From contig JBFWNU010000001.1 of assembly GCA_050250895.1 (NCBI GenBank), positions 2,150,210 through 2,214,209 on the forward strand: DNA of 64,000 bases, given 5' to 3'. Shown here piece after piece: positions 13,713 through 64,000 of the stretch. Position 1 is the stretch's first letter; the number at the start of each line of letters is the position of its first letter. The position numbers were made by a program, and so were the translations under genes. The notes beneath the pieces were generated by a model. It worked only from the letters and a program-made list of their open reading frames with translations, searched no databases and was not told where the DNA came from. Source of the stretch: Vulcanimicrobiota bacterium (lineage in GTDB: Bacteria > Vulcanimicrobiota > Xenobia > Xenobiales > JADMJV01).

Positions 13713-13715
13713 CTC

Positions 13716-13943
13716 TTACGAGGCGGAATAGGTGCAGCCGCAGCTGTCGCAGCCGCCATCACAGCCGTCGGTGCCCGGACCAGCGTTGACCGCCAGGGTT
13801 TGGCGGATATCCAGTTCTCGCATGGCGGGGGTGATCCAGGGCTTTTTGCTATCGGCTGCGTCCATCTTCGCAAGTTCTTCGAAGGTGCTTAGCCTCCTTC
13901 TGGGGTTGACCGCTTGGATTGGCAAAGATACCATGCCGTCCAT
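13716..13943 (-). CDS. RiPP precursor peptide (leader + Cys/Ser/Thr/Asp-rich C-terminal core ...GTDGCDGGCDSCGCTYSAS)
   Basis: Small ORF immediately 5' of, and co-oriented with, the YcaO-SagB operon. C-terminal 19 residues contain 4 Cys, 4 Ser/Thr and 3 Asp in Gly-rich spacing, then stop. An alternative in-frame start at 13865 (MDAADSKKPWITPAMRELDIRQTLAVNAGPG...) gives a 49-aa peptide and avoids overlap with the divergent kinase gene. Confidence 0.6.
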   Translation of the reverse strand: MDGMVSLPIQAVNPRRRLSTFEELAKMDAADSKKPWITPAMRELDIRQTLAVNAGPGTDGCDGGCDSCGCTYSAS

Positions 13944-15632: not shown

Positions 15633-15939
15633 CCAAAGAATCGAATCACTCCCCATGGGTTTGGGTAGGGACGCCATTTTGGTGCGACATCGTCACGTGG
15701 TCTCGACCGAGCTACCGGATGGAGAGGCGGCTCTGATGGACATGCAGAGCGGGACCTACTTTCATCTCAACAGTGTGGCTAGCAGGCTGTGGCAGCTGAT
15801 CGCCGAGCCGATCTCACTGGCTCAGGTTTTGACCGCTCTCGAGGATGAGTTCGAAGTCGAAGCGGACCGCTGCCACGACGAGGTGGTCAGCCTGGTGACG
15901 CAGTGGCTCGAGCGTGGCTTGAGCCAGGTCGTCGCGTGA
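15625..15939 (+). CDS. PqqD-family protein (stand-alone RiPP recognition element, lasso-peptide B1-like)
   Basis: ~100 aa. Pattern LMDMQSGTYFHLNSVASRLWQLI...VLTALEDEFEV...VVSLVTQWLERGL typical of PqqD/RRE proteins. Overlaps neighbours on both sides (operon). Confidence 0.75.
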   Translation: MTSQRIESLPMGLGRDAILVRHRHVVSTELPDGEAALMDMQSGTYFHLNSVASRLWQLIAEPISLAQVLTALEDEFEVEADRCHDEVVSLVTQWLERGLSQVVA

Positions 15940-17687
15940 CCCTGGCTGGCTCTTCGGGTAGCCACGGAGTCTATCAGCTGGAATGGCCCGTCACCCCGTG
16001 GTGCCGGGACCGGGTCAGTTTGGTGGAGGGGCTCGAAAGCCGGGGGCTTGCGGTGGGGGGTCACGTGCGTCTGGACTATGGCAAAGAGCTGCAGGCTCGA
16101 CTGGGGCTGGCCGAGGGGACGTCGGCGGCCGAACTGGTGCTGGCCGCCTGGCGAACGCGGGGGCCCGATTGCCTGACGATGCTCTTTGGAGAATTCGCCT
16201 TTGCCGTCTATGACGGCGAGGCCCTCTGGCTGGTTCAATCCCCGTTCGTGCGCTGGCCAATCTACTACACCGAGACTGCCGAGGGCCTGGCCTTTCATTC
16301 CAGCGCCCGCGCCCTGCACCGCCTGCTGGACCGAGCACCTCGACTGCACGAGCGAGCCCTGGCCGCCTGGGCAATTCGGCAGCGTCTGGTGGAACCCAGC
16401 GATACCTTTTTCGAAGGGGTTTCGCGGGTCGAGCCGGCTGGATTGGTGAAGGTGGTCGAGGGGCGGGTGGTGAGCCGCCATTGCTGGTGGAAGCCAGTCT
16501 GGAGTCCGGCCCCGGCCGGTCGCGACCTGGCCGAGCTGGCTGCCCACCTCACCGATCAGGCCGTTCGCTCGCGGTTGGGCAGTCGACCGGTCGGGTGCTA
16601 TCTGAGCGGAGGCCTGGACTCGAGCACTCTGACGGCCCTGGCCTGCCGGGCGCTAGGGCAGCAGGGGCGCCGCCTGATAGCCTTCTCTTCGGTCTTGCCG
16701 CCCGGATACGCCGGCCCGGAGCGCGACGAGCGAGAGCCGATCGGCGTGATGGCTCGGCATTTCGAACTGGAGGTAGTCGAAGTGGTGCCCACTCGGGGTC
16801 CGACCTGCGACCTGCCGGGCCACACCGAGCTGGCCGAATCCCCCTACCTATTCCCCAAGCAATATGTCTTCGCGGCGATGCTCGAAGCGGCCCGCCGACG
16901 CGGCCTGGCCACCATTCTCGATGGCGGCTTCGGAGAGTTGACCCTCAGCCACGATGCGCCGACGGCCTTTGCTTATCTGGCTCGTCGGGGTCGCTGGCGC
17001 GAGCTGGCCGGATTGGTCCAGGCCTGGGCGCCGCGGGCCGGGCTGCCCTGGTGGAGAGTATGGTTCGCGACGGTGCTCAGGCCGCTTCTTCCAACGCGCC
17101 GAGTTCCGGCGCCCTGGCTGCCTCTGCAGGCCGACTTTGTGGCCCGCCAGGGTCTTCGCCCTCGGTTTGAAAGGCCCCGCGCCCAGGGGTGGTTGCCACC
17201 GATGGAAGGGCTGACATCGGTCCTGACCGCGGTAGGAAGCAGCGCCCTGCCGTTCTATGACCGCCATTTCGGGGTCGAGGTGCACAAGCCGTTTCTCGAC
17301 CGTCGCCTGATCGAGTTCTGCCTGACGCTCGACCCGGCCGACTTCTGGCTCGACGGCTGGCGGCGGGGGCTGGTGCGCCAAGCCATGCGCGACATCCTGC
17401 CGCGGGCCATCGTCGAGCGGACCGATCGGGGCGCTTTCGCGCCCGACTTCTTTGCGCGCTTTCGCCAGGGAGCTCCGGCCTTGCGAGCCGAGTTTGGGTC
17501 TCAGGGGCCCACCGATCTGGCCGCCCACTACTTCGACCTGGAAAGCCTGAGAAAGCTGCTTGACCAGCTCACCAGCCGTCCCGCCAGCGAGAAGTCACCC
17601 CAGGGAGCCCAGGCCAAGCAGGTTCTGCTGCGCAGCCTGGGGGGCGTCCGCTTTCTACGAAGTCTTCACTCCCAACCCGTCCAGTGA
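15903..17687 (+). CDS. asparagine synthetase (AsnB)-like PP-loop ATP-pyrophosphatase (lasso-cyclase / amidotransferase-like)
   Basis: PP-loop VGCYLSGGLDSST. N-terminal Ntn-glutaminase-like fold (GEFAFAVYDGEALWL) lacks the catalytic N-terminal Cys, as in lasso-peptide lactam synthetases. 594 aa. Confidence 0.8.
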   Translation: MARAWLEPGRRVTLAGSSGSHGVYQLEWPVTPWCRDRVSLVEGLESRGLAVGGHVRLDYGKELQARLGLAEGTSAAELVLAAWRTRGPDCLTMLFGEFAFAVYDGEALWLVQSPFVRWPIYYTETAEGLAFHSSARALHRLLDRAPRLHERALAAWAIRQRLVEPSDTFFEGVSRVEPAGLVKVVEGRVVSRHCWWKPVWSPAPAGRDLAELAAHLTDQAVRSRLGSRPVGCYLSGGLDSSTLTALACRALGQQGRRLIAFSSVLPPGYAGPERDEREPIGVMARHFELEVVEVVPTRGPTCDLPGHTELAESPYLFPKQYVFAAMLEAARRRGLATILDGGFGELTLSHDAPTAFAYLARRGRWRELAGLVQAWAPRAGLPWWRVWFATVLRPLLPTRRVPAPWLPLQADFVARQGLRPRFERPRAQGWLPPMEGLTSVLTAVGSSALPFYDRHFGVEVHKPFLDRRLIEFCLTLDPADFWLDGWRRGLVRQAMRDILPRAIVERTDRGAFAPDFFARFRQGAPALRAEFGSQGPTDLAAHYFDLESLRKLLDQLTSRPASEKSPQGAQAKQVLLRSLGGVRFLRSLHSQPVQ

Positions 17688-34387: not shown

Positions 34388-34505
34388 GGTTCCTCCTTGC
34401 CGAGGCGATTGTTGCAGAGCCCTTCCTCGCCCAAGCCAAGATCCCTCTGAGAGGGCGGTAGGCTAGGAGCCTACCGCCCCGTCAGCTCCGGGTGGAGCCG
34501 GCTCG

Positions 34506-34907
34506 TCAAGGGTTGGGACTCAACAGCAGTTCGGCTTCAGGACAGTACTTCGTGAGCATGTCACCGGGCAGCCGATGGAGAACCCCTAGATGGAGCGAAA
34601 GCCTTCGCTCGAGTTGCCGTATCCTTTCGTAGGCGGGCACGCGGCCGTGCAAAGGACCGTCGTGCTCGATCAGTCGTCTGGCCCCTTTTTGGGTTAGCCG
34701 GATACTGCGCGGTTTTTTGGCTTCTCGCTCGATATAGCCAGCGAGCTCCAGGTTGCGCAGGTGGGTATGCACCGTCGAACTGGAAATCAGGCCGAAATGC
34801 TCGGCGATCTCGCGGATTGCGGGGGGATAGCCTTTGCGGGCGCGGTAGTCGAACAGAAAGCGGAGCACCTGTTCACGCCGAAAAGTGAGGTTTTTTCTAG
34901 TCATCAT
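34506..34907 (-). CDS. LexA-N-terminal-like winged-helix DNA-binding protein (no S24 peptidase domain)
   Basis: REQVLRFLFDYRARKGYPPAIREIAEHFGLISSSTVHTHLRNLELAGYIERE matches the LexA DNA-binding domain pattern. Only 133 aa, so the autoproteolytic domain is absent. Confidence 0.55.
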   Translation of the reverse strand: MMTRKNLTFRREQVLRFLFDYRARKGYPPAIREIAEHFGLISSSTVHTHLRNLELAGYIEREAKKPRSIRLTQKGARRLIEHDGPLHGRVPAYERIRQLERRLSLHLGVLHRLPGDMLTKYCPEAELLLSPNP

Positions 34908-45996: not shown

Positions 45997-46692
45997 ATGA
46001 ATGCTTCTGGTCGGTGGTTTTGTGTGTTGTTGGTGGTGGTCGCTTGCTTTGGCGCCTGTAGTGCGCCGGCCGGCGACCCGGTCGAGACTTCGACCGCCCC
46101 GGCTCTGGCCGTGGCCACCCCGGCCCCGACCGAACCCGAGAAAGTGTTGCCCGAACTTAGTCCCGAAGAGGCGCGAAAGGCAATCGACACCGGCATCAAG
46201 TTGTTTCATCAGGGAGCCACCAAGACGGCCCTGCGCAATCTCGAGGAAGGCTTGCACAATTTGCCCGATGATCCCCAGGGGCTGGCCTATCAGGCGCGGG
46301 CCCTCGACAAGCTGGGACGCTCTGACGAGGCCAGCGCCGTCTATGAGAAGATTCTGGCTAAGGACGCCAAGAATGCCGAGATCCATTGGCGCTACGGCAA
46401 CACTTTGCTGGTGGCCGGTCGCGACCAACCGGCCGAGCAGCACTTCACGACGGCTATCGAACTGGGCTATGGCGCCACGGCCCTGCTTTCGCGCAGCGCC
46501 GTCTCCATGAAGCGCAAGGAGTATGAAAAGGCGATCAAAGACCTCGATGCCGCTATCGCGGCCGAGCCAGAGCTGGCCCAGGCCTACATTCTGCGCGCTC
46601 AGGCCTATCAGAAGTTAGGCAAGAAAGACAAGGCCACCCAGGACTTCTTCAAAGCCCGCAAGCTCAACGGTCGACGTAGCCCGATGCGTTAG
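45997..46692 (+). CDS. TPR-repeat lipoprotein
   Basis: Signal + lipobox (VVVACFGACSAP). Several 34-aa TPR-like repeats (e.g. AYQARALDKLGRSDEASAVYEKIL). Confidence 0.6.
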   Translation: MNASGRWFCVLLVVVACFGACSAPAGDPVETSTAPALAVATPAPTEPEKVLPELSPEEARKAIDTGIKLFHQGATKTALRNLEEGLHNLPDDPQGLAYQARALDKLGRSDEASAVYEKILAKDAKNAEIHWRYGNTLLVAGRDQPAEQHFTTAIELGYGATALLSRSAVSMKRKEYEKAIKDLDAAIAAEPELAQAYILRAQAYQKLGKKDKATQDFFKARKLNGRRSPMR

Positions 46693-46715
46693 AGGTGGGT
46701 CGGGCTTTCGCGCCG

Positions 46716-47048
46716 GCGGGTTAGTCCTGCGGCGAGTACGGCACCAGGTGGCGCCGAATTCGGCACGTGGTGGCGCCGTACTCTGGCCAGGCTGCACTTC
46801 CGCGGGGAAGTTGGCTCGCCGCGGGCTGTGGTCGCCGGCGAGTTAGTTCTGCGGCGAGTACGGCACCAGGTGGCGCCGAATTCGGCACGTGGTGGCGCCG
46901 TACTCTGGAGCAGGCTGCACTTCCGCGGGGAAGTTGGCTCGCCGCGGGCTGTGGTCGCCGGCGGGTTAGTCCTGCGGCGAGTACGGCACCAGGTGGCGCC
47001 GAATTCGGCACGTGGTGGCGCCGTACTCTGGAGCAGGCTGCACTTCCA
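46716..47048. repeat. intergenic tandem direct repeat, ~122-123 bp unit, about 2.7 copies, each with internal palindrome GCCGAATTCGGC
   Basis: Unit boundaries (TTAGTCCTGCGGCGAGTACGGCACCAGGTGGCGCCGAATTCGGCACGTGGTGGCGCC...) recur at 46721, 46843 and 46966 with a few substitutions. The third copy is truncated near 47048. Confidence 0.85.
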
Positions 47049-47171
47049 CCGGGCGTCGGCCCGGCCGCGGCTGACGGGAGCAACGAGAACGTATGGTCAG
47101 GGGGTTAAACTCGAACGGGGGCGGCGTTCTCGTCGCTCCCTACGGCGCTTCGCGCCGCGCCGCTGGGCCGA

Positions 47172-48344
47172 CTAGAGATGGGTGGCGACGACGCTGCCGC
47201 CGACGAAGGTGCCGATGGTGCCCAGCAAGTTGGTCAGCACGATGACCATTAGAATGCGGGCTACCCGATTGGTCCACAGGCCTTTGAGGCTCACCAGATC
47301 GTCGCCGATCGATTCAAAGTCGGCCACCCGGGGCTTGCGGATCGAGGCCTCGACCAAACCGGCCACCCAGCCGCCGGCGATGGTGGGGTTGAGACTGGTG
47401 AAAGGAGAGGCCACGAAAGCCGCCAGGATCGTCAGGGGGTGGGCTCCGGCCAGGGCCGAACCGGCCGCCCCAAAGCCGGCATTGATGAGAAACCAGGCCT
47501 TGAACATCTCCCAGCTGGTTTCGGCTCCGCCGTGCACAAAACCGTAGACGATCATCGCCAGTACGATGATAGGGATGAGCCAGGCCAGGGCGCGACTGGT
47601 CTTGCTGGGGGCCGGCAACTCGTCGAGGGGGTCGGTGTCGATGGTCTCGCCCAGCCACTTCTTGATGCCCGGAACGTGACCGGCGCCCACGATGGCAACC
47701 ACTCGTTGGCCGGGCGATGCTTGGATGCGAGCGGCCAGGTATTGATCCCGCTCGTCAATGAGGGCCTCGCGGACTTCGGGCAGCTTTTCGGAGAACTCGC
47801 GCATGGTCTCTTCGAGCACGTCCGAGGTCTTGAGGCGCTCGATCTCTTCGGCGTCGAGCTCTTCGTCACCGAAGAGGCTGCCGATGAGGGTGGCCATCAC
47901 CTTGATCATCGAGAAGAAGCGCAGCTTCGCCCAGGTTCGCCGCAGGGTGATGCGGACTTCGCGGTCGGCCATCACGATAGGCACGCCCAGCTCTTCGGCC
48001 ACCGAAACGGCCCGCATCATCTCTTCCCCCGGTTTGACCCCCAGCTGGTCGCCGATTCGGCGCTGAAAGCCCGAGAGCATCAGCTGGGCCAGCAGCAGGT
48101 GGGCCTTGCCCTGGCGGATGACCTCGACCAGGTCGGTGTTCTTCCAGCGGTCCGGGTCGCGCAGCGACTGAAGGCGCGGCTCGCACAGCTCGACGGCTAC
48201 GGCGTCGGGGGTGACCTCGCGGATGACCTCTTCGGCCAGCTCCGCACTGGCCAGGCTGACATGGGCGGTGCCGACGAGGTAGATCTCGCGTCCGTCGAGC
48301 TTGATCAGGTCGACGTTGTCCTTGTGCTGGATGACTTCTTTCAC
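47172..48344 (-). CDS. TraB/GumN-family protein with C-terminal TM helices
   Basis: IYLVGTAHVS motif and overall TraB-family layout. Hydrophobic C-terminal third. Confidence 0.7.
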   Translation of the reverse strand: MKEVIQHKDNVDLIKLDGREIYLVGTAHVSLASAELAEEVIREVTPDAVAVELCEPRLQSLRDPDRWKNTDLVEVIRQGKAHLLLAQLMLSGFQRRIGDQLGVKPGEEMMRAVSVAEELGVPIVMADREVRITLRRTWAKLRFFSMIKVMATLIGSLFGDEELDAEEIERLKTSDVLEETMREFSEKLPEVREALIDERDQYLAARIQASPGQRVVAIVGAGHVPGIKKWLGETIDTDPLDELPAPSKTSRALAWLIPIIVLAMIVYGFVHGGAETSWEMFKAWFLINAGFGAAGSALAGAHPLTILAAFVASPFTSLNPTIAGGWVAGLVEASIRKPRVADFESIGDDLVSLKGLWTNRVARILMVIVLTNLLGTIGTFVGGSVVATHL

Positions 48345-53490: not shown

Positions 53491-53754
53491 ATGCTTGTGA
53501 TCAGAAATAGCCAGCAACTTGCCGCCGCCGAGCCGGCCGTCGAACACGATCGGATGCTCGTGACCAGCGCGGCCGTTCCCTCGCAGAGCGAGCATCGCCA
53601 TCGCCACCAGGAAGAGCGCCGCTCAGGCCGGTGGGAATGCGACGAAGAAGGCTATGACGAAGTGATTTTCAGCGAAGCCATCGAGGAAGAGCCCTATTCG
53701 GACTATGACGTCCAGGGGATCATCGGCAACCTGACTCAGGCCCTCAAGCTCTGA
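53491..53754 (+). CDS. possible small acidic protein (87 aa)
   Basis: In-frame Met with GGAGAGAGA upstream. Locally AT-richer codons, His/Glu-rich. It is the only part of the long ORF 52747..53754 not antisense to another gene. Confidence 0.3.
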   Translation: MLVIRNSQQLAAAEPAVEHDRMLVTSAAVPSQSEHRHRHQEERRSGRWECDEEGYDEVIFSEAIEEEPYSDYDVQGIIGNLTQALKL

Positions 53755-54596
53755 AAGAAGCCCTCGCCGGCCAGCTTGATTTTCTCTAGCTTGTTGAGAC
53801 TGGCCCGTTCTTTAAGCACCCGCGGACCCATCTGGGCAATGCGCTCGAGCAGGCCGCGATAGATTCGGGTCATGGCCACCAGTGAGGGGCGGCTGACCGA
53901 GTCGACCCTTTCCACCAGCGGCTCGGACTTTTCGTAGTAACCTCGCGCCCTCTCGACTTCGAAAGCGAGCAGCCGGGCGAAGCCCGGGCCGGGGTTGCCG
54001 GCCAACAGGTCGGCAGGCTTGACTTCGAAGCGTTCCAGATCTTCCAGAGGCAGATAGATGCGCCCCCGCTCGGCGTCCTCGCTGATGTCGCGCAGGATGT
54101 TGGTCATCTGAAAGGCGATGCCACGGGCTTCGGCCTCGGCAAAAGCCTCATCCGAACCATCGAAACCGAAGATGTGGATGCAGACCAGCCCGACGGTCGA
54201 GGCTACCTGATAGCAGTAGCGATAGAGTTCCTCGAAGGTTTGATAGCGTGAGACCGACAGGTCCGCCTCGGCCCCGTCAATGAGCTCGCGAAAATAGCGG
54301 GTGGGGATCGCGTAGCGCTGTACCGTTTCGTGAAAGGCCGGCAGGATGGGGCTCGAGTCCGCTTGTTGGCCCGGCTCGACCGAGGCCCGCCAGCGCGTAA
54401 GCAGCTCGTCGCGGTCGCCCACGATCTCGTCGTCGGACACATCGTCGCAGTAACGAAAGAAGGCATAGACGGCGCAAAGCGCGTCCTGGCGCTGGCTGGG
54501 TAGCAGGCGGATGCCGTAGTAGAAGTTTTTGGCTCGCTCTTTGGTGACTTGGCGACAGTGCCGATACGAGTCGGCCAGGCTAATCATGGCGGGCAA
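53736..54596 (-). CDS. squalene/phytoene synthase family protein (HpnC/HpnD-type)
   Basis: Asp-rich motifs (YCDDVSDD...; NILRDISEDAERGRIYLP) and YCYQVASTVG region characteristic of the trans-isoprenyl diphosphate head-to-head synthases. Confidence 0.8.
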   Translation of the reverse strand: MPAMISLADSYRHCRQVTKERAKNFYYGIRLLPSQRQDALCAVYAFFRYCDDVSDDEIVGDRDELLTRWRASVEPGQQADSSPILPAFHETVQRYAIPTRYFRELIDGAEADLSVSRYQTFEELYRYCYQVASTVGLVCIHIFGFDGSDEAFAEAEARGIAFQMTNILRDISEDAERGRIYLPLEDLERFEVKPADLLAGNPGPGFARLLAFEVERARGYYEKSEPLVERVDSVSRPSLVAMTRIYRGLLERIAQMGPRVLKERASLNKLEKIKLAGEGFFQSLRA

Positions 54597-54679
54597 AGCT
54601 TCTCGTTTGGGCTCTCAACTCCTGTGAAAGCCAAAAGGGCCACCCGTTTGGGTGGCCCGGCAAACCAGATAGTTCGAAA

Positions 54680-55057
54680 TCAAGCGCCGATGCGGTTTTC
54701 CATGACCTGCATGGATTCCATGTTGACGCGAATCTCTTGAGTCTGTTCTTGTGCGTAGGTGAAGAGCGTGGCTACGCGGCGGTTGCGGTCGATGACCAAA
54801 CGCTGGCCGATAGACGTATTGCGCTCTTCGCCCGGCTGGTTGCCGAGCACGTAAGCGCGCAGGTCGGCCTGGTCGAGTTCGAGATCGGGGGCCAGGAGCC
54901 AACCGTTGCGAAGAATATGTTTGGGCTGCATGACGTATTTCATGAAGCGGGGTGAGGTAACCTCGGTGAGGGCGCCGAAGAGGCGGGCTTCCCGCAAGCG
55001 GGTTGCCAATCGGGGGTGGACTTGGCCGGACGGCGCCTCGTGCATGACTGTATTCAT
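54680..55057 (-). CDS. hypothetical protein
   Basis: 125-aa ORF between the synthase gene and hpnA; no motifs. Confidence 0.3.
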   Translation of the reverse strand: MNTVMHEAPSGQVHPRLATRLREARLFGALTEVTSPRFMKYVMQPKHILRNGWLLAPDLELDQADLRAYVLGNQPGEERNTSIGQRLVIDRNRRVATLFTYAQEQTQEIRVNMESMQVMENRIGA

Positions 55058-55158
55058 TGTATTTGTGTAACCTTTCTAGCCGTCTCCGACTGAGGTTCGT
55101 TCTCCAGTTGTTGAGATTATTAAATATTCAGCTGAAAAAAGGCTGAAAGCCTGGGTAT

Positions 55159-56235
55159 GTGCGTTCCTCTCGGCCATTCCTGGTTGCGAGAGGAACTAGC
55201 CCACTCGGGCGGAAACGGTTTGCCTGTTTTAGGGAGTTCCTTTTGTCAGGCACTGTTCTCGTAACCGGTGGGGCCGGGTTCGTAGGTCACCATCTTGTTA
55301 ACAAACTACTAAACCGGGGCGATAGGGTTCGGGTTATGGTGCGAGCCAGCACGGATACCCGGCTGTTGGACGGACTCGAGGTCGAACTCTGCCACGGAGA
55401 TCTCACCGACCACGAATCGCTTCGTCAGGCCGTGCGCGGCTGTAGGCGCGTCTTTCATTGTGCCGCCGACTATCGTCTCTGGACCCGCGACCCCAGCCAG
55501 CTCTACGTCGCCAACGTGCAGGGCACCCATCAGCTTTTCGAAGCTTGCCTGGCCCAGGGGGTCGAGAAGGTGGTCTACACTTCGTCGGTGGCCACCATCG
55601 GCATTCCGGCCGACGGCACTCCGGGCGACGAAGAGACCAGGGTCGGCCGCCAACACATGATCGGCCACTACAAACGTTCGAAGTATGACGCCGAGCAGGT
55701 CGCCTTTCACTTTGCCCGGCGGGGGCTGCCCATCGTGATCGTCAACCCCTCGACGCCGGTGGGGCCCGGCGATGCCAAGCCCACTGCCACCGGGCGCATC
55801 ATTACCGACTTTCTGACCGGCCGTATGCCGGCCTACGTGGATACCGGGCTCAACCTGGTGGCGGTCGAGGATGTGGCCGAAGGTCACCTGCTGGCCGAGC
55901 AGCGCGGAGTGAACGGCCGCCATTACATCCTGGGCAACCAGAACCTGAGCCTGCGCCAGATTCTCGAGTTGCTGGGTGAGCTGACCGGCCGGGCCGCGCC
56001 CCGGGTCCGCATTCCTCAGCTGGTGGCCGAGCTGATCGGACACCTCGACACCTTTGTGCGGGGTAAGCTCTTTGGGGTCGAGCCCCGGGTGCCGATCGAG
56101 GGGGTCAAGATGGCCCGCAAGAAGATGTACTTCGATTCGGCCAGAGCCGCCACCGAACTGGGTTTCGAGCCCACTCCGGTGCGGGAGGCGCTGGCCAGGG
56201 CGGTGGACTGGTTCGGGAGTCAGGGCTATGTCTAG
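55159..56235 (+). CDS. hpnA: hopanoid-associated NAD-dependent sugar epimerase/dehydratase (HpnA-like)
   Basis: VLVTGGAGFVGHHL NAD loop and YKRSK catalytic motif. Sits immediately upstream of hpnG/hpnI homologues. The true start is probably nearer 55240. Confidence 0.7.
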   Translation: MRSSRPFLVARGTSPLGRKRFACFREFLLSGTVLVTGGAGFVGHHLVNKLLNRGDRVRVMVRASTDTRLLDGLEVELCHGDLTDHESLRQAVRGCRRVFHCAADYRLWTRDPSQLYVANVQGTHQLFEACLAQGVEKVVYTSSVATIGIPADGTPGDEETRVGRQHMIGHYKRSKYDAEQVAFHFARRGLPIVIVNPSTPVGPGDAKPTATGRIITDFLTGRMPAYVDTGLNLVAVEDVAEGHLLAEQRGVNGRHYILGNQNLSLRQILELLGELTGRAAPRVRIPQLVAELIGHLDTFVRGKLFGVEPRVPIEGVKMARKKMYFDSARAATELGFEPTPVREALARAVDWFGSQGYV

Positions 56236-56911
56236 CCCTCGGGTCGGGATCTTGGCCCCGATGCCGGAAGAGGCCGCGGGTCTGGTGCGCGTGCTGCGCT
56301 TGCGGCCCGAAGGCAGCCACCACGGCGTGCCCTTCTATCGCAGCCAGACGGTCAGTCTGGTCTGCTCGGGTCTGGGTCAAGAGCGGGCCCAGCACGCCAT
56401 GCACTGGCTGCAGAAGGTGGACCGTCCCCGCAGCATCCTGATTGCCGGGGTGGCCGGCGGCCTTGATCCCGAACTGGTGACGGGCGACCTGTTGTTGGCC
56501 GAGGGCGGCGAGCCCGCCTGGCTGGCGGCAGTGGCCGGCCGTCTGCCCCGGGCGCGGGTGGGCAAGCTGCTGACCTCGGGGCGGGTCATCGTCAAAGCGC
56601 GCAACAAGGCAGCCGTCTTCGCCGATACGGGAGCCCTGGCGGTGGACATGGAGACGTGGGCCGCGGCCGGCGTGGCCAGGGTTCCCTGGTTGGGGCTGCG
56701 GGCCATCAGCGATACCGCCGGCCAGGACCTGCCACTCGATTTCAACGACTATTTCGATGACAAGGGCCACTCGCGCTATGCCGCCGTGGCTCTCGAGGTG
56801 GCACGCCGCCCGGCCTTGCTGCCCGGGCTGTTGCGCCTGGCCGGCAACTCGGTCAAGGCCGTCAAGAGGCTGGGTGAGGCGGTTCGGGTGGCTCTCGAAG
56901 AGGCTCCGTGA
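56228..56911 (+). CDS. hpnG: hopanoid-associated phosphorylase (HpnG-like; PNP/MTA-nucleosidase fold)
   Basis: PNP_UDP_1-type pattern (VGILAPMPEE..., IAGVAGGLD, LAVDMETWAAA). ATG overlaps the hpnA stop (ATGTCTAG). Confidence 0.7.
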   Translation: MSSPRVGILAPMPEEAAGLVRVLRLRPEGSHHGVPFYRSQTVSLVCSGLGQERAQHAMHWLQKVDRPRSILIAGVAGGLDPELVTGDLLLAEGGEPAWLAAVAGRLPRARVGKLLTSGRVIVKARNKAAVFADTGALAVDMETWAAAGVARVPWLGLRAISDTAGQDLPLDFNDYFDDKGHSRYAAVALEVARRPALLPGLLRLAGNSVKAVKRLGEAVRVALEEAP

Positions 56912-57990
56912 GCACCCTCTGGTTGATTTTATTGCTGGTGGCGGCTGGCTACCAGCTGGCCTGTGCCTGGCTGAGCCTTGGTTTTCGAGGCGAGCTGCGC
57001 CGATTTGCCGACAAAGGCTTTCGCCCCGGGGTTTCGCTGCTCAAGCCGGTGCGAGGCTGGAGCGAGCGGACTGCTCGCAATCTGGCCACTTTCGAGGAGC
57101 TGACCTATGAGGGGCCGGTGGAGACCGTGTTCACGGCCGCCCGGCGGGGCGATCCGGCCGTGGCCGCCCTGGGCAGCCGGGTGGTCGACGGCACGCCTTC
57201 GCCTGGGCACAACCGCAAGGTCGCCGGTTTGGTGGCCGGGCTCGAGCGCACTCGTCACGATTTGCTGGTCGTCTCGGATGCTGATATCCGCGTGCCTCCG
57301 GATTATCTCGAACGCGTCTGTGCCGCTTTCGAGGACGACCGGGTGGGACTGGTGACCAGCCTCTATCGTGCTGGTCCGGGGCAGAGCCTGGGGACGGCCC
57401 TGGAGGCTCTCTGCATCGCCGATTTCTCGGCCTCGGTGCTGGTGGCCCGCCGCACCGAAGGCCTGGCCTTCGCGCTGGGGGCCACCATGGCCGTGCGGCG
57501 CCAGGCCCTCGAGCAGATTGGGGGCTTTGCCGCCCTGGAGGACTTTCTGGCCGACGACTTTCAGTTGGGCCACCAGGTGGCCCGGGCCGGCTGGCAGGTG
57601 CGCCTGGCTCCCACCGTGGTCGAGACCGACCTTGGCGAGGTCGACCTCCAGGGGGCCCTGTCTCACCAGTTGCGCTGGATGGTGACCTCGAGGGTGTCGC
57701 GCCCCGGGGGGCACGCCGCCTTCATCGTCACCCAGGGCCTGCTGTGGGCCCTGTTGTTGGTGGCCTCCACGGGTGCCTGGTGGACCCTGGCCGCCTGGTG
57801 GGGTTGGCGGTGGCTGACCACGGCGGTGGTCTGGCAGGTGCTGGGGGCTCGTTGCCGCTGGTGGCTATTGCCAGTCAAGGAACTGGCCTATCTGTGCCTG
57901 TGGGCGGCCTCGCTGGCAACTGATACCGTCCGCTGGGGTGAAGACCGCTTTCGCATCGACCGTCAGGGGAAGATGACTCCTGTATGCTAG
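56908..57990 (+). CDS. hpnI: glycosyltransferase family 2 (ceramide-glucosyltransferase-like; HpnI-like)
   Basis: N-terminal TM, DxD-type region (LLVVSDADIRV), QxxRW-like motif (HQLRWMVTSR), C-terminal TM helices. Overlaps the hpnG stop by 4 nt. Confidence 0.7.
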   Translation: MSTLWLILLLVAAGYQLACAWLSLGFRGELRRFADKGFRPGVSLLKPVRGWSERTARNLATFEELTYEGPVETVFTAARRGDPAVAALGSRVVDGTPSPGHNRKVAGLVAGLERTRHDLLVVSDADIRVPPDYLERVCAAFEDDRVGLVTSLYRAGPGQSLGTALEALCIADFSASVLVARRTEGLAFALGATMAVRRQALEQIGGFAALEDFLADDFQLGHQVARAGWQVRLAPTVVETDLGEVDLQGALSHQLRWMVTSRVSRPGGHAAFIVTQGLLWALLLVASTGAWWTLAAWWGWRWLTTAVVWQVLGARCRWWLLPVKELAYLCLWAASLATDTVRWGEDRFRIDRQGKMTPVC

Positions 57991-60089
57991 CCTTGCTGAT
58001 GCTACTTTGCGCCATGCCACTCGAGCCGACGGCCCTGGACGCCCTGGTCGAACAAGCCATCCAGCAGGGTCAGACGGCCGGGGCTGTCTTGCTGGTCGGC
58101 CGGGGCCGCGAGGTTCTCTACCATAAGGCTTATGGCTTTCGCCAGCTTGCCCCCGAGCGCTTGCCCATGACCACCGACACCCTCTTCGATGTGGCCTCTT
58201 TGACCAAACCAATGGCCACCGGGCTGGCCGTGAACTGGCTGTTCGAAAAGGGCAAACTCTCGCCCCAGGACCGGGTGGCCGACTATCTGCCCCAGGTCGA
58301 CCCGCGGCTAACGGTAGAGCAGCTTCTGATCCATCGCGCTGGCTTTGCCCCCGATCCCCCACTCGAGGCTGGCTGGGACGAGATCCTCGCGAGCCAACCT
58401 ATCCATCCACCGGGCCAGGAGTTTCTCTACAGCGACATCGGCTATCTCATCCTGGGCAAACTGGTCGAGAAGGTCGACGGGCGACCGCTGGACCGCCTTT
58501 GTGCCGAGGAGTTCTACACTCCCCTCGAGATGGTCGACACCGGTTTCAATCCGGCCCCGCGCCCGCGGGTAGCGGCCAACGAGGGGCCCCTCAGCGGTCG
58601 GGTGCACGACCCTCGGGCCGCCCGGCTGGGCGGAGTCGCGGGCCATGCGGGGCTGTTTTCGACCACCAGGGACACCTCTCGCCTGGCGGTGATGCTGCTC
58701 GAGGGTGGAGCCGGCCTGCTAGCACCCGAGACGGTCCAGGCCATGACGGCCAATCACCAGGGGCGCAGCTACGGGTTCGATGTCGACACCAGTTTCTCGA
58801 CTGCCCGTGGCGATCGCTTTGCGGCCGGATCCTCCTACGGGCACACCGGCTTCACCGGCACCAGCCTGTGGATCGACCCGGCTAGCGGCATCTATGTCAT
58901 CCTCTTCACCAACCGGCTCCATCCCGACGGGAAAGGCTCGGTGGTCGAGTTGCGCCGCCAGGTGGCCACGGCTGTGGCCGACCAGTTGCTGGGGCCGCCG
59001 GTAAAGTTGGGGGTCGATCGCCTGGTCGAGCAAGACTTCGCCCCCCTGCGCGGTCATCGGGTGGGCCTGGTGACCAATCACACCGGCCGCGACAGTCGAG
59101 GCCGACGAACGGTCGATCTATTGGCCCAGGCCGAAGGGGTCGAACTGGTCTGTCTGTTTAGCCCCGAACACGGCCTGCAGGGCAATCGGGACGAAAAGAT
59201 CGGCCATTCGGTCGATCAGACCACCGGTTTGCCGATCTACAGCCTCTACGGGGAAGACCGCCGCCCTCGGCCCGAGTGGCTGGCTCAAGTCGACACCGTG
59301 GTTTTCGACATCCAGGATGCGGGCTGCCGGTTCTATACCTACATCTCGACCATGAAAGCGGTGCTCGAGACCGCCCCCCGGGTGGTCGTGCTAGATCGTC
59401 CCAATCCGCTCGGGGGTCAGCTGGTCGACGGCTGGTTGGCCGAAGAATTCGACTTCATCGCTTGCGCCCCCATCCCCCTGGTCCACGGCATGACGGTGGG
59501 GGAGTTGGCTCGGCTCTTCAACCAGTCGGCCGGCACTCAGCTCGAGGTGGTCGCCATGCAGGGCTGGCGCCGCTCGATGAGCTTCGACCAGACCGGAGTG
59601 ACCTGGATCGACCCGTCTCCCAACTTGCGAAGCACCACCGCCTGTTATCTCTATCCGATGGTCGGGTTGCTAGAATGGGCCCATCTGTCGGTGGGCCGAG
59701 GGACCGACTCTCCTTTCCAGCGCTTTGGGGCCCCATGGATCACCGACCAGCGCCAGCTGGCCTGGCGCCTCAATCAGCTGGGCTTGCCTGGACTACGGTT
59801 CGTCCCCATCCGGTTTACGCCCCAGGCATCGGTCTTCGCCGGCCAGGAGTGCGGCGGAGTCGAGGTCGTGCTCTGCGACCGCCAGGTCTTGCGACCGGCC
59901 CTGGCCGGCCTCCAGGTGGCCCGACTCTTGGCCGAACTCTATCCCGACCACTTCCAACCAGAGAAGTTGAGCCGGCACATCGCCAACCCGGCCGTGCTGG
60001 CTTCTATCCAGGCTAGCCCCGACCCGGCCCTGTGGCAGCCGAGCCTGGAAGAGTTTTGCCGACGCCGCCAGCAAGTCTTGTTGTACTAG
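57984..60089 (+). CDS. fusion protein: class-C-type serine beta-lactamase/transpeptidase fold + DUF1343 (NamZ-like exo-muramidase) domain
   Basis: N-terminal SxxK (FDVASLTKPMA), YSD (FLYSDIGY) and HTG (YGHTGFTGTS) motifs. The C-terminal half (VGLVTNHTGRD...VVFDIQDAGCRFYTYISTM...) matches the DUF1343 pattern. 701 aa. Overlaps the hpnI stop. Confidence 0.75.
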   Translation: MLALLMLLCAMPLEPTALDALVEQAIQQGQTAGAVLLVGRGREVLYHKAYGFRQLAPERLPMTTDTLFDVASLTKPMATGLAVNWLFEKGKLSPQDRVADYLPQVDPRLTVEQLLIHRAGFAPDPPLEAGWDEILASQPIHPPGQEFLYSDIGYLILGKLVEKVDGRPLDRLCAEEFYTPLEMVDTGFNPAPRPRVAANEGPLSGRVHDPRAARLGGVAGHAGLFSTTRDTSRLAVMLLEGGAGLLAPETVQAMTANHQGRSYGFDVDTSFSTARGDRFAAGSSYGHTGFTGTSLWIDPASGIYVILFTNRLHPDGKGSVVELRRQVATAVADQLLGPPVKLGVDRLVEQDFAPLRGHRVGLVTNHTGRDSRGRRTVDLLAQAEGVELVCLFSPEHGLQGNRDEKIGHSVDQTTGLPIYSLYGEDRRPRPEWLAQVDTVVFDIQDAGCRFYTYISTMKAVLETAPRVVVLDRPNPLGGQLVDGWLAEEFDFIACAPIPLVHGMTVGELARLFNQSAGTQLEVVAMQGWRRSMSFDQTGVTWIDPSPNLRSTTACYLYPMVGLLEWAHLSVGRGTDSPFQRFGAPWITDQRQLAWRLNQLGLPGLRFVPIRFTPQASVFAGQECGGVEVVLCDRQVLRPALAGLQVARLLAELYPDHFQPEKLSRHIANPAVLASIQASPDPALWQPSLEEFCRRRQQVLLY

Positions 60090-60153
60090 AAGGATGGGGG
60101 GCGTGGATACCCCGTGGTAGTCCTTTCCTCGGATGCCTTCTCTATGCTCAAGA

Positions 60154-60973
60154 CATGAGATACTGCGCGTTATTGGTAGCCGTGTTGCTGTTGGTCGGCT
60201 GTGGTCCCGACAAAGAACCAGAACAGGCCAGGGTCAGTCCGACTGCCCGTCCGGTGGTGCAGGTGACGGCCACTCCCAGCCCCCAGCCGGCCTCTGAGCC
60301 AGGACCGAGCTTTCGCGTCAGAACGATTTTTCCCGGGGCCAGCAACGTGACCTTCGATGTGACCATCAACGGCCGTCCGGCGGGCTCGTTCAACACCTCG
60401 GCCCAAAACGATATCACCCCGCTGGTGAGCGCTGGTGACAACTCGTTGGAGATCCGCTGGAAAGCCGACCCCGAGATGATGAGTGGGCGCAGTGTAGAGT
60501 TCTATTTCGAGCAACGGCCGTCGCCTGATGATGATTGGAACACTCTGGTCTCGCGCCAGGTGAACAAAGACACCGAAGCAGGCTCGCTGACCACTAGCTT
60601 TGTCTCGGGCGAAGTCGGGCTGACCCAGCCGGCCGTGGAGGTGGATCAGCCCCCGGCTGAACTGGCTGACCGCTTCACCGTCAAGGTCGAGCAGAGCAAG
60701 CTGTTGCCGGCCGACTTTACTCTGACCCTCAACGGTCAGCCGGTGGGGTCGTTCGCGGCTAACTCGGATCAAGACGTGACCCGCTTTATCCGACCGGGCG
60801 AGAATCGAGGGCGTTTGGTCTATGAGGCCAAAGGCCACATCCTGCCGAAAGGGGCCCAGACCAGGTTCGTGCTCGGCGTAGAGCGCGACGGCAAATGGTC
60901 CACCGTGGTGGCCCAGACCGTCGGCCAAGCGGACCCGGAAGGGCTCAAGGAGTTCGCCTTCCAGGCCGAATAG
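60154..60973 (+). CDS. hypothetical lipoprotein
   Basis: MRYCALLVAVLLLVGCGPD signal + lipobox. Start coordinate is approximate (±1-2 nt) because the upstream ORF extension is in frame. Confidence 0.5.
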
Positions 60974-61017
60974 GAAAAGCCCCGCTGGTGTCGGGGCTTC
61001 GTCTTTGGCTCGCTGCG

Positions 61018-61374
61018 CTACTTGATGCGGGCTGTGTGGTCTTCTTCGAGAATGACCTGGCTCGCTTCCAGCAGGTTGATCTCTTCGAACTCGAGGGCGT
61101 TGCCTTCGGAGTCTTCCACCCGGATGTCCCACAGTTCCGCCTCGCTGGCGCCGTCAAATTGGATGTTGACGGTGGCCCCGTTCTGGATCACCTTGCCCCC
61201 CAGCAGGTCCTCTTCCCAGTTATCGGTGCCGGAAGGGCTGACGTAGAGGGCGTAGATGTCGACGCCCGTGCGATTGAAGAGTTCGAAGTCTTGCTCGCCG
61301 GCGCGGGCCGTCTGGTGGAGCGAGCCGAGCAGGAGCGCGGTGAGTGCAATAATCCCTAGAACTGACTTTCTCAT
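61018..61374 (-). CDS. small secreted protein (118 aa)
   Basis: Signal peptide MRKSVLGIIALTALLLGSLHQTARA. Acidic mature part. AT-richer codon usage. Confidence 0.45.
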   Translation of the reverse strand: MRKSVLGIIALTALLLGSLHQTARAGEQDFELFNRTGVDIYALYVSPSGTDNWEEDLLGGKVIQNGATVNIQFDGASEAELWDIRVEDSEGNALEFEEINLLEASQVILEEDHTARIK

Positions 61375-61482
61375 CGTGAGTATTCCTCCCCATTTTATTG
61401 CCCGGAGAAAGTTCAGCCGGAAACGAGCACCATCCTCTCGGCCTTGTCGGGTTCGCCTGCTCGAGGAACGGGGGCCGGCGGC

Positions 61483-62130
61483 CTAGTCGCCCTGGCGCCG
61501 GACCCGGTGGAAATAGACCGTTTCACGACCCCAACTGAAGAGATACTCCTGCTGGCGCCATAGCTCGAGGTCGGGATGGAGGGTCTGCCAGCCGACGCTG
61601 ATCCAGCGCGTTCCTTCGGCCAGATCGTCCACGCAAGCGGCCAGATCCAGGCGGGTGTCCTCTTCAAAGACAGTCCCGGCCACATAGACACAGGTGACCT
61701 CCTCGAGCGGGGTGTCGGCGAAGTCCTGATGCCGAAAGCTCACCCCGTCCAGGCCCAGCCAGGCTACAATGCGGCGGGCCACCACCAGATAGCTGGCCAG
61801 CAGGTCGACTCCGATAGCCTGCGCGCCCGTGAGCAGATGGGCCATGAAGACCATCTTGCCGCGACCGCAGCCCAGATCGATAAAGACATCGTCTGGTCCC
61901 AGTTCGGCCTCCCGCAGGATCTCTTCGGCGGTGAACCAGGGAGTCTCGCCGTAGCGAAAGTCGCCAAAAGGGCGTTTGAGGGCCCGGGCTTGCAGATAAA
62001 TGTCGAGAGGCGCGAACCGGACCAGATAGTGGGTCCAGAACAGCGCCTCTACTTTCCAGAGTCGGGGGACTCGAAAGAGTGCTTTCCACTCGCGGGGCCC
62101 TAAAAACAGGACCTCGAGAGATTCCTTCAC
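61483..62130 (-). CDS. class I SAM-dependent methyltransferase
   Basis: Motif I VFIDLGCGRGKM and an acidic residue after beta-2 (GVDL). Confidence 0.6.
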   Translation of the reverse strand: MKESLEVLFLGPREWKALFRVPRLWKVEALFWTHYLVRFAPLDIYLQARALKRPFGDFRYGETPWFTAEEILREAELGPDDVFIDLGCGRGKMVFMAHLLTGAQAIGVDLLASYLVVARRIVAWLGLDGVSFRHQDFADTPLEEVTCVYVAGTVFEEDTRLDLAACVDDLAEGTRWISVGWQTLHPDLELWRQQEYLFSWGRETVYFHRVRRQGD

Positions 62131-62131
62131 T

Positions 62132-63133
62132 CTAGGCGGTCAGGTGCCAGGTGGCCAGCTGGGCCATACCCTTGAGGCTGCGCGAGGCCGCTTGCACGGC
62201 GCTATGCTCGAAGCCCGAGTGCATCTTGCAGTTGGCGCAACGACGGTCCTGGCGGGTTTCCCAATAATCCCAGTCCACCGAGTTCCAGAAGGTGTCGAAA
62301 TCGTCGTAGTATTTGTCGCCAATCAGATAGCAGGGTCCCTTCCATCCGTTGGGCGTGTAGTTGACCGTCGACCAGGGCGAGCACTTGAGTTCGATCAATC
62401 CGGCCGCGAAGTCGAGGAAAGCGGGCGTGGCCGTCAGTTTGTATTTGCTCGAGAGTTCGCGGATGCGCTTGAACTTCTCGTGAATCTGCTCCTGGGTCAG
62501 GAAGACGTCGGCTTTGACGCTCTCGTAGCTGTAGCCGGGCGAGATCAGGATGCCGTCGACATTGAAGCCGGTCAGGAAGTCGCAAAGTTCCTCCACCTCT
62601 TCGATGTCGGTCTCTTTGAAAACGGTGGTGTTGGTCAAGGTCAGATAGCCGCGCTCTTTGCATTCTTTAATCATGGCCACGGCCTTGTCGAAGACGCCGT
62701 CGCGAGCGCACACATAGTCGTGGGTCTTCTTCATTCCATCAAGGTGGACATTGACGAATAACTGCTTGTGCGGCTTGATGTTGGGAAAGAACTTCTTGTC
62801 GAGCATCAGGGCGTTGGTACACAGGATGATGTGCTTGCCCTGCTCGATCAGGCCTTCGATCAATTCTGGCAGTTCGGGGTAGATGGTCGGCTCGCCGCCG
62901 CAGACGGCCACGGTGGGCACTTCGGTGATGCGGGCGGCCTCGAGGCATTTCTCGACCGGGAGGCGATCCTTGAGCTTGCCGGTGTGGCGCTCGACCGCGC
63001 AACCGATACAGGCCAGGTTGCAGGTATAGAGCGGCTCCAACATTAGCACGGTGGGGTAGCGCTTGCGCCCTTTACGGCGCTGCTGCACCATGTGCTTAGC
63101 GTTGGACATTACAAAGTCGATGGGGAATCGCAT
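62132..63133 (-). CDS. hpnH: radical SAM adenosyl-hopene transferase (HpnH-like)
   Basis: CxxxCxxC radical-SAM cluster motif (YTCNLACIGCA) near the N-terminus and a Cys-rich C-terminal domain (CANCKMHSGFE) as in HpnH. Start set at the internal Met 63133. Confidence 0.75.
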   Translation of the reverse strand: MRFPIDFVMSNAKHMVQQRRKGRKRYPTVLMLEPLYTCNLACIGCAVERHTGKLKDRLPVEKCLEAARITEVPTVAVCGGEPTIYPELPELIEGLIEQGKHIILCTNALMLDKKFFPNIKPHKQLFVNVHLDGMKKTHDYVCARDGVFDKAVAMIKECKERGYLTLTNTTVFKETDIEEVEELCDFLTGFNVDGILISPGYSYESVKADVFLTQEQIHEKFKRIRELSSKYKLTATPAFLDFAAGLIELKCSPWSTVNYTPNGWKGPCYLIGDKYYDDFDTFWNSVDWDYWETRQDRRCANCKMHSGFEHSAVQAASRSLKGMAQLATWHLTA

Positions 63134-63243
63134 GGTTACACCTCTAGGATCGGTTTCGGAGCCCCGGGTTCTAGTCGCCTGCCGAGATTCCTTTCTATCA
63201 GGCGAAATGGCCGCGCGCCCTGAGCCGCGAAAGAAGCCCTTGC

Positions 63244-64000
63244 GATGGAGCAAGCCGAGCAACTGCAACGATTGGTGGACCGCGGCGCCTTAGACGAGGC
63301 GGTCCGTCTGGCCAAATCCCATCCCGACCTGGCCTTCGCTCTGCCGCGGCTTCACCTGCTTCGGCGTGACCGGGCGGCCGTGCTCGCGATCATTCGCCGG
63401 CTCCTTCCCATGGCCGGCACCGATTCGGCCTATCGACTGCTGGGCGAGTTGGCCGGACAGGTGGGGGCCAGCGGCCTGCGCCGGCACATCGCCAGTCTCT
63501 GGGGCGAGCCGGAGTTTCTTTACGAGACTTATCTGGCCACCGGCTGCCCGGAGGCCGCCCGCAAGGTTCTGCACGCTCAGTTCCAGCAGGCCAGGATACC
63601 CACCTGGGCGCTTTCGCGACGGGCCCTCGAAGAACTCGAAGAGCGCCGCCTGGAATCGGCCGGACGCTTCTTCGAACTGGCAGGGGATGCTTTTAGTCTG
63701 CACCAGCAAGCCGAGGTCGCCCGCCGCCTGGGCGATGCCGCCCAGGCCGACCGGCTCGAGCGCAAAGCCATGCGCGCGCAGCCAGATTATCTGTGGACCC
63801 ACTGGCGCCAGGCCATGACCCATCGCCAGCCGGCTCGTCTCGAGCTTTGCGCTCCCGAATCCCAGGGCTTGCTCAAAGATCTCAGAGTGGCCTGGGGTCT
63901 GGCCCAATCCGGCTATCGAGGTGGGGAGGCCGAATGGCACCACTACAGCGGATGGCAGTCGTTGGACCGGTTGGCTCTGACGGTGGTCGCCGAACCCGGG
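63244..64000 (+). CDS. hypothetical protein, 3'-truncated by window end
   Basis: Manual translation from ATG 63244 gives an uninterrupted frame to the window edge (MEQAEQLQRLVDRGALDEAVRLAKSHPDLAF..., TPR-like helical content). Not in the ORF track because it has no stop within the window. Confidence 0.4.

Follow-up and report, generated by a model that had tools for sequence, protein, structure and literature searches.

A tandem repeat between two convergent genes

The 64,000-nucleotide (nt) stretch of a Vulcanimicrobiota bacterium genome analysed here, which we call the window, contains a 479-nt spacer between two convergent genes, one encoding a tetratricopeptide repeat (TPR) protein and the other a TraB-family protein. 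In this spacer, 3′ of both genes, lies a tandem array of 2.7 copies of a 123-nt unit, each built around a long imperfect palindrome. The array is probably a lineage-specific, non-coding minisatellite of an intergenic element that resembles the REP (repetitive extragenic palindromic) elements of other bacteria and the REP doublets forming hairpins (REPINs). An earlier note, made from the DNA letters, had placed a repeat between these two genes; Pfam confirms both, and their convergent arrangement. The features of the locus are listed below, with L016 and L017 denoting two sister lineages.

45997–46692, + strand: gene for the TPR-repeat protein (Pfam; NCBI name MAG tetratricopeptide repeat protein [Vulcanimicrobiota bacterium])
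46701–47070: whole tandem array, with its core at 46711–47047 (2.7 × 123 nt, 97%), from Tandem Repeats Finder (TRF), self-BLAST and MAFFT alignment of the three units
46712–46833: unit 1, 122 nt, with a 1-nt deletion 3′ of the palindrome
46734–46783: first copy of the 50-nt palindrome, GAGTACGGCACCAGGTGGCGCCGAATTCGGCACGTGGTGGCGCCGTACTC (repeat finder, fold)
46796–46811, and again at 46919–46934: small second hairpin ACTTCC-GCGG-GGAAGT (sequence, fold)
46834–46956: unit 2, 123 nt, differing from units 1 and 3 by two single-nucleotide polymorphisms (SNPs) that lie upstream of the palindrome
46856–46905: second copy of the 50-nt palindrome, folded as RNA on both strands
46957–47047: unit 3, cut off after ~91 nt (…GCTGCACTTCC)
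46979–47028: third copy of the 50-nt palindrome (repeat finder)
47048–47171: non-repeated part of the spacer, common to sister lineages L017 and L016
47172–48344, − strand: gene for the TraB/PrgY/GumN family protein (Pfam), convergent with the TPR gene

TRF applied to the whole window gives the array at 46711–47047 with a period of 123 nt, 2.7 copies, 97% matches and a score of 646. This is by far the strongest repeat of the window, the runner-up scoring 96. Self-BLAST extends a weaker similarity out to 46701–47070, so that the edges at 46701–46711 and 47048–47070 are of weak similarity, and beyond the end of unit 3 the spacer is of sequence common to L017. The earlier note had described a 122-bp repeat in about 2.7 copies. 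The repeat is real and TRF likewise gives 2.7 copies, but the period is 123 nt; the copies are spaced by 122 and then 123 nt, the first interval being shorter because of a 1-nt indel in unit 1 (CTGG-CCAGG versus CTGGAGCAGG).

The palindrome and its folding

All three units have the same imperfect palindrome of 50 nt, GAGTACGGCACCAGGTGGCGCCGAATTCGGCACGTGGTGGCGCCGTACTC, centred on the sequence GCCGAATTCGGC. The arms, which start GAGTAC, are 76% complementary, and the pairing extends through CCTGC…GCAGG to ~70 nt. Within the window, exact copies of GCCGAATTCGGC are confined to 46753, 46875 and 46998. This is the perfect 12-bp palindrome of the earlier note, which is thus present in each unit but is part of a larger structure. 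The direct sub-repeat described there is also present, though its true length is 18 nt (CGGCACnnGGTGGCGCCG); there are two per unit, 22 nt apart and each partly self-complementary, and the palindrome can alternatively be read as these two direct sub-repeats. The sequence GGTGGCGCC occurs six times in the array, with 22-nt spacing within each unit, and once more in the window, at 40730. A 31-nt core pattern gave three matches, with 0.00 expected in shuffled sequence. The palindrome is 100% conserved over the three units, the few differences falling outside it. Each unit also contains seven palindromic hexamers (GCCGGC, GGCGCC twice, GAATTC, CACGTG and CCGCGG twice), compared with a window mean of 2.3, a density in the top 1% of windows.

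The palindrome is predicted to fold into a very stable hairpin on either strand. As RNA the 50-mer of the − strand has a folding energy of −34.5 kcal/mol (z −7.0), forming 13 bp, a 4×4 internal loop, 6 bp and an AAUU loop, while that of the + strand has −29.5 kcal/mol (z −4.7). The strands differ because two positions that pair as G·U on the − strand are A·C on the + strand. The extended hairpin of ~70 nt (calculated for the 76-nt stretch 46843–46918) reaches −41.9 kcal/mol on the − strand (z −6.2) and −39.5 kcal/mol on the + strand, and as DNA the hairpin has z ≈ −3.7 on both strands. The whole spacer folds with z −9.9, and a single unit with z −5.7 and a well-defined centroid. The segment between palindromes has no significant structure (z −0.7 and −1.6). 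The small hairpin ACTTCC-GCGG-GGAAGT is missing from the truncated unit 3, and its stability alone is not significant. In the stretch 47048–47171, outside the repeat, an outer inverted repeat (47055–69 with 47158–72) surrounds an inner 16-bp stem with a 33-nt loop (47076–47140), and there is a small hairpin CGGCGC-GAA-GCGCCG.

Coding potential, RNA families and transcription signals

Four of the six frames across the array are open, the unit of 123 nt corresponding to 41 codons. However, these open reading frames (ORFs) have a GC content at the second and third codon positions (GC2 and GC3) of 0.61–0.75 and 0.61–0.72, respectively, whereas the real genes here have GC2 ≈ 0.4–0.5 and GC3 ≈ 0.75–0.85, and a search of 5.8 billion proteins with the translations of these frames returned no homologue. 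A protein-coding repeat is ruled out on these two grounds, and the ORFs are artefacts of the repeat, just as the earlier note had said of those in its list. For annotators this means that the ORFs of 113–120 amino acids called over the array are spurious. The frame of the TPR gene is open for 161 codons past its TAG (46693–47175, + strand), running through the array to the TraB stop region. Lengthening of the TPR protein by stop-codon read-through was rejected since the composition is non-coding, and since at ~71% GC and with a repeated unit chance can be expected to leave such a frame open.

No Rfam 15 family matched at its gathering score anywhere in the window; in the region 46500–47300 there were only plant microRNA models (E = 1.8 and 4.6), far below the gathering score. 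Scanning of 46000–48000 revealed no sigma-70-like promoter site and no hairpin-plus-U terminator, and the hairpin is followed by no T-run on either strand. Canonical terminators exist elsewhere in the window, at 54658–54637 and 41451–41428. A strong 18-bp hairpin (89% complementary, 3-nt loop) at 34447–34485 lies directly 3′ of a gene for a protein with a LexA DNA-binding domain (34506–34907, − strand), of which it is probably the terminator; its sequence is unrelated to the 123-nt unit.

A number of other identities were considered and set aside. The array is not a CRISPR, as the sequences between the palindromes are themselves identical repeats. ToxI-like arrays of type III toxin–antitoxin systems are tandem repeats of ~34–48 nt that lie upstream of, and co-oriented with, the toxin gene; here the unit is 123 nt, and the array lies 3′ of the neighbouring gene on both strands with no co-oriented gene after it. 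The GC skew is uniformly positive with no switch, which rules out a feature of an origin or terminus. Inspection by eye disposed of three further candidates. Of a σ54 promoter there is the GGCACG, with a GG–GC spacing of N9 instead of N10, the match to parS is limited to the CACGTG core, and there are no RYYYAAC/GTTRRRY core sites of an integron attC. Nor is the array a remnant of genes that occupy the junction in either of two relatives, L010 and L011, with which tblastx gave only short, insignificant matches.

Comparison of the spacer among relatives

The junction between the TPR and TraB genes differs widely among the relatives. In L010 (GCA_964423525.1, TraB 74% identical) the gene order is kept, but the two genes abut or overlap and there is no spacer. 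In L011 (TraB 70%) three unrelated genes lie at the junction. L017 (ENA k141_66802) has a TPR gene 83% identical in amino acids and ~85% in nucleotides, and its contig extends 88 nt beyond the TPR stop, with a tail that matches window positions 47042–47102 at 84%. End-to-end alignment of the window with L017 requires the removal of ~316 nt (46721–47036, boundaries ±15 nt), and in a scan over all possible deletions the score was +182 with this deletion compared with −122 without. In L016, whose TPR protein is the same as that of L017, the end of the TPR gene is joined after 16 nt to the TraB-proximal half of the spacer; it is this simple joining, and not an inversion of the L017 spacer, that accounts for its arrangement. 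The spacer lengths are therefore 0 (L010), at least 53 (L016), at least 88 (L017) and 479 nt (window).

The comparison of these sequences indicates that the array is lineage-specific and restricted to the lineage of the window, because L017 can be aligned only with ~316 nt removed and the 74% relative L010 is without a spacer. The extra length is itself informative, since 316 ≈ 2 × 123 + 70, the last term being about the length of the extended hairpin (~70 nt). The history would most simply be the gain of one hairpin, followed by two tandem duplications of the hairpin together with ~53 nt of spacer.

The motif CGCT(G/T)CGCGCCG(G/C)GCCGCTGGG(G)CCGAC is found directly after the TPR stop in L016 and L017, and directly before the TraB stop in the window (the regions concerned are window 47048–47171, L017 1843–1930 and L016 1935–1987). 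Such direct repeats could mediate the observed changes in spacer length among strains (0, at least 53, at least 88 and 479 nt).

Reliability of the assembly

The repeat is genuine, the 2.7 copies being the count in the assembled sequence. Logan unitigs of the runs SRR27751815 and SRR27751816 are 100% identical to the window up to 46740, where they stop 29 nt inside the array, as would be expected when a k = 31 graph enters a repeat. From the TraB side, four short-read contigs (one of the same organism and three of sister strains) end close to the TraB stop (within ~35 nt; offsets +23, +35, −36 and +7). The flanking proteins are present in two NCBI assemblies (as MGE0491887.1/MGE0491888.1 and MGE4201019.1/MGE4201020.1), in one of them on a contig of 3.95 Mb, and the sister proteins are labelled Candidatus Eremiobacteraeota. 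An assembly artefact, in which the repeat had been mis-expanded or mis-collapsed, would draw on the failure of short-read assemblies to cross the array, whereby the copy number is that of the assembly. Yet the units can be told apart by two SNPs and a 1-nt indel, their flanks are unique, independent unitigs from two runs enter the array with complete identity, and both NCBI assemblies hold the flanking proteins, so that we consider an artefact extremely unlikely. The repeat accounts for the breaking of short-read assemblies of this lineage at this point. Logan contigs of the same organism also end at 9093 and at 45013, the latter inside an aldehyde dehydrogenase gene; no repeat was found to explain these breaks, for which strain variation or a dropout of coverage are possible.

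A second locus

Comparison of all 30 intergenic regions of the window with one another revealed a single similarity between any two of them, and this connects the array to the following feature.

9152–9210, + strand: decayed partial paralogue of the unit (a ‘singlet’ relic), corresponding to unit positions 33–92 (BLAST, nhmmer)

With the unit the relic shares 83% identity over 59 nt, rising to 87.5% over the core 40 nt (BLAST E = 6e-6, nhmmer E = 1.2e-7). This intergenic copy lies 37 kb from the array in the same orientation, and is 130 nt downstream of a FAD-oxidase gene. It has no left palindrome arm, carries mutations in both GGCGCC sites and in the GAATTC, and does not fold significantly (z ≈ 0); it represents a half-element in decay. 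Because of this half-copy in another intergenic region, the hairpin element belongs to a family with at least two loci. The earlier note would have given up its reading had the unit occurred only here; by virtue of the relic this is narrowly not so, though no high-copy family is demonstrated. A further ~13 kb of sequence from the same genome (L012 and L013) contained no other copy.

The relic lies ~60 nt beyond the contig end at 9093, within a 482-nt gap (9023–9504) that borders a gene cluster of the type making ribosomally synthesized and post-translationally modified peptides (10436–17687). The cluster includes a ThcOx/nitroreductase-like dehydrogenase (10436–11638), a YcaO protein (11622–13712), a sulfotransferase (14772–15632) and the lasso-peptide-type genes PqqD (15625–15939) and an Asn-synthase-like cyclase (15903–17687).

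Elsewhere in the window a second tandem hairpin repeat, at 916–1039, occupies the convergent junction of the gene at 13–918 (+ strand) and that of a peptidase M19 at 985–2025 (− strand). It consists of TAGGCGG repeated 3.6 times, then a terminator-like GGAGCG-ggctt-CGCTCC-TTTT, then a 27-nt sequence repeated 3.2 times. The 27-nt repeat, at 952–1039, has the hairpin GCTGGC-GAA-GCCAGC with a T-rich tract, and overlaps the last ~18 codons of the peptidase. From this second tandem hairpin repeat it seems that 3′ hairpins have been amplified at convergent junctions more than once in this genome.

The window also contains a hopanoid-type biosynthesis cluster, at 53736–63268 and in L012, with synteny conserved in L010 and L011. 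It comprises a squalene/phytoene synthase, an NAD-dependent epimerase, PNP_UDP_1, a family-21 glycosyltransferase, a radical-SAM DUF3463 protein and a methyltransferase.

Comparison with known repeat systems

The closest likeness is to the REPINs, described by Bertels and Rainey as REP doublets forming hairpins (PMC3116915, PMC3337134). Their ordered clusters are tandem repeats of the hairpin with its flanks, and their singlets are more decayed than the doublets (PMC3116915). According to Di Nocera et al., REPs are found mainly downstream of genes, between unidirectional and convergent ORFs, and most fall into superfamilies tagged by GTAG or CGTC, the tag being unpaired and at one end of the palindrome (PMC3733652). 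The present array has much in common with the REPIN clusters and bacterial interspersed mosaic elements of Pseudomonas fluorescens SBW25 and Escherichia coli. These too are extragenic, with an imperfect nested palindrome (~50–90 nt) that forms a long hairpin, occur as ordered tandems of near-identical hairpins together with flanking sequence, leave more diverged half-element singlets elsewhere (here the relic, with one arm and 83% identity), vary in presence among close relatives, and lie downstream of genes and between convergent ORFs. Thus the array is strictly intergenic and has the short extragenic imperfect palindrome, or hairpin of ~50–130 nt, by which REPs and REPINs are recognized, and it has both the ordered cluster and the decayed singlet expected of REPINs. 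There are also differences. The 18-nt half-sites of the array are direct and not strictly inverted within the palindrome, and we found no description of REPINs for the host phylum (Vulcanimicrobiota/Eremiobacterota). By analogy, then, the array would work like a REP/REPIN cluster, and it looks like one, without being a proven REPIN.

A possible functional parallel is provided by E. coli, where one REP cluster acts as a partial Rho-dependent terminator and as a stabilizer of the upstream mRNA, and where the presence of REPs between convergent genes is correlated with raised expression of the pair (bioRxiv 10.64898/2026.03.23.713779). Like this REP325-type 3′UTR regulator, the array is a cluster of several hairpins in what would be a 3′ untranslated region. 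The function is experimental in E. coli, whereas for the array we infer the functional model from position and folding.

Two further classes of repeat offer a poorer match. The mycobacterial interspersed repetitive units (MIRUs), which form variable-number tandem repeat (VNTR) loci in Mycobacterium tuberculosis, are without a long palindrome, and lie within operons in fixed orientation with small overlapping ORFs. They share with the array direct tandem repeats of ~40–120 nt, an intergenic location, a high-GC genome, several loci and a copy number expected to vary by strain, but the array has the long palindrome, lies at convergent 3′ ends and has no coding signature. The enterobacterial repetitive intergenic consensus (ERIC) or intergenic repeat unit (IRU) elements are imperfect palindromes of ~125 nt that resemble miniature inverted-repeat transposable elements (MITEs), and are dispersed as single copies with one palindrome spanning the whole unit. 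The array has a unit of similar length, a presumably transcribed intergenic location and strong hairpin potential, but it is arranged head to tail and only 50–70 of its 123 nt are palindromic. General context for ERIC/IRU and MITE-like repeats is given in PMC3184786.

Discussion

We conclude that the array is probably a lineage-specific, non-coding minisatellite derived from a palindromic, REP/REPIN-like intergenic element. Of the three natures suggested in the earlier note (a protein-binding array, a REP-like element or a structured small RNA) the REP-like element provides the best fit, combining a hairpin in a 3′ spacer, tandem amplification, a decayed copy and absence from the sister lineage, although membership of that class is not established. 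The sequence family of this palindromic intergenic repeat is new, but its kind is ordinary and the phylum under-studied; most likely the array is an ordinary selfish or neutral repeat of the REP/REPIN-like kind and not a new kind of system.

The following course of events would be consistent with the data. A hairpin element of ~70 nt, with a core of 50 nt, would have settled by insertion in the convergent spacer between the TPR and TraB genes, implying that the element is or was mobile or prone to copying, at low copy number. A segment of 123 nt, comprising the hairpin and ~53 nt of adjoining spacer, would then have been duplicated head to tail twice to give the 2.7 units, by slipped-strand events or unequal recombination. 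The region contains no promoter-like site, and both flanking genes lack a canonical terminator; transcription of the array would therefore be confined to the 3′ tails of read-through RNA from the TPR gene, the TraB gene or both. In such a transcript the three stem-loops may act as barriers, blocking 3′→5′ exonucleases, damping read-through and limiting the collision of convergent transcription. Position and folding are what point to this barrier effect, which is probably incidental rather than selected.

Several observations weigh against this interpretation. The first concerns abundance. There are two loci, the array and the relic, in the ~77 kb of the window with L012 and L013, compared with hundreds per genome for REPINs (and usually tens to hundreds for REPs and REPINs together); the default criterion of RAREFAN for a high-copy REPIN is a 21-mer seed occurring more than 55 times. 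Searches of reference genomes, JGI metagenomes, viral contigs, plasmids and phages gave nothing beyond chance matches of 23–26 nt. Exact-pattern scans with GGNGCCGNATTCNGCACGTGGTG matched two genome contigs, three metagenome contigs and no viral contigs, over only 23–26 nt in every case; these matches are chance, and the pattern is too strict for diverged copies, the source species evidently lying outside those sets. Searching the whole spacer against plasmids and phages by blastn in distant mode also gave no match. Characteristic signs of the REP/REPIN class are missing as well. No Y1_Tnp, REP-associated tyrosine transposase (RAYT) or any other transposase domain is present in the ~60 ORFs of the window. 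The units lack the GTAG or CGTC tag of the REP superfamilies in either sense, containing no GTAG, CTAC, CGTC or GACG; the sole CGTC, at 47054, is in the native flank. The units are not classical intrinsic terminators either, because the U-tract is missing although the organism has canonical terminators elsewhere. The polarity of the change is ambiguous because the outgroup is without any spacer, so that while an insertion seems the better reading a loss in the sister lineage would give the same pattern. The segment between hairpins is just ~57–83% similar to the present flanks, and a simple recent duplication of hairpin plus flank is not a perfect fit. Lastly the strand of action is ambiguous, the G·U pairs favouring the − (TraB-sense) strand and the orientation of the element the + strand, for at both loci it is carried in the + orientation downstream of + strand genes.

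Other explanations were also weighed. The array could be a purely local, neutral minisatellite, in which the hairpin arose in place, was amplified by slippage, and was never mobile or functional, the likeness at 9152–9210 being a by-product such as a gene conversion patch or an old segmental copy. The hypervariability of the spacer among the relatives, and its bounding by direct and inverted repeats, are what such a process would leave; the paucity of loci, the lack of a transposase in the window and of a REP tag, and the other junction minisatellite at 952–1039 point the same way. But the similarity of the relic is significant, and its location, 37 kb away in an unrelated intergenic region and with the orientation unchanged, is more easily explained by a dispersed element. 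Moreover, what the window has in excess of L017 is longer than two units by about the length of the extended hairpin. On balance we think that a purely local origin is unlikely.

The regularity of the array might instead reflect the binding of protein to DNA, with the 50-bp palindrome or the six 18-nt sub-repeats recognized by a nucleoid-associated protein, a partition or replication protein, or a regulator. The six copies of CGGCACnnGGTGGCGCCG are regularly spaced by 22 and ~101 nt in an iteron-like manner, 22 bp being two helical turns; the perfect 12-bp palindrome is at the centre; palindromic hexamers are unusually dense; and the palindrome is invariant in the three units while the differences lie outside it. 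This last statistic is weak, as with only three variant positions the probability that chance would place all of them outside the palindrome is P ≈ 0.2. The array is situated between 3′ ends and not at a promoter, with no gene for a DNA-binding regulator adjacent; it is missing in the sister lineage and the relic has lost GGCGCC and GAATTC; and there is no GC-skew switch that would mark an origin or terminus, nor similarity to plasmids or phages. The protein-binding array proposed in the earlier note thus finds no positive support, and we regard it as very unlikely. Little more than that can be said for its small RNA with strong secondary structure, whether as tandem genes or as one structured non-coding RNA with its own promoter or promoters. 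The very stable folding is real on both strands and better than that of shuffled sequence, especially on the − strand (z −9.9 for the spacer and −5.7 for the unit), where two positions are G·U instead of the A·C mismatches of the + strand. However, there is no sigma-70-like promoter or U-tract terminator in 46000–48000 and no Rfam family, the array is not conserved in the sister lineage, the unit outside the palindrome is not significantly structured, and two of the three units have a SNP that disrupts the predicted closing stem. A test of covariation is impossible with near-identical copies, the sole diverged copy being truncated. We give such an RNA gene very little credence.

Returning to the REP/REPIN-like element, there are two bolder forms of the idea, which together we hold to be improbable. 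The hairpins could belong to a hitherto undescribed, untagged REPIN-like mobile population in the Vulcanimicrobiota/Eremiobacterota, with neither GTAG nor CGTC and served by an unrecognized transposase, or the three-hairpin array could have been co-opted as a bidirectional insulator and mRNA stabilizer for the TPR and TraB genes.

The locus presents a natural series of growth of a spacer between convergent genes, from 0 to 479 nt, through gain of a hairpin and tandem amplification. Should the hairpin turn out to form a multi-copy family, elements of the REP/REPIN type would be extended to a barely cultured phylum, and a VNTR-like marker for the typing of strains would become available.

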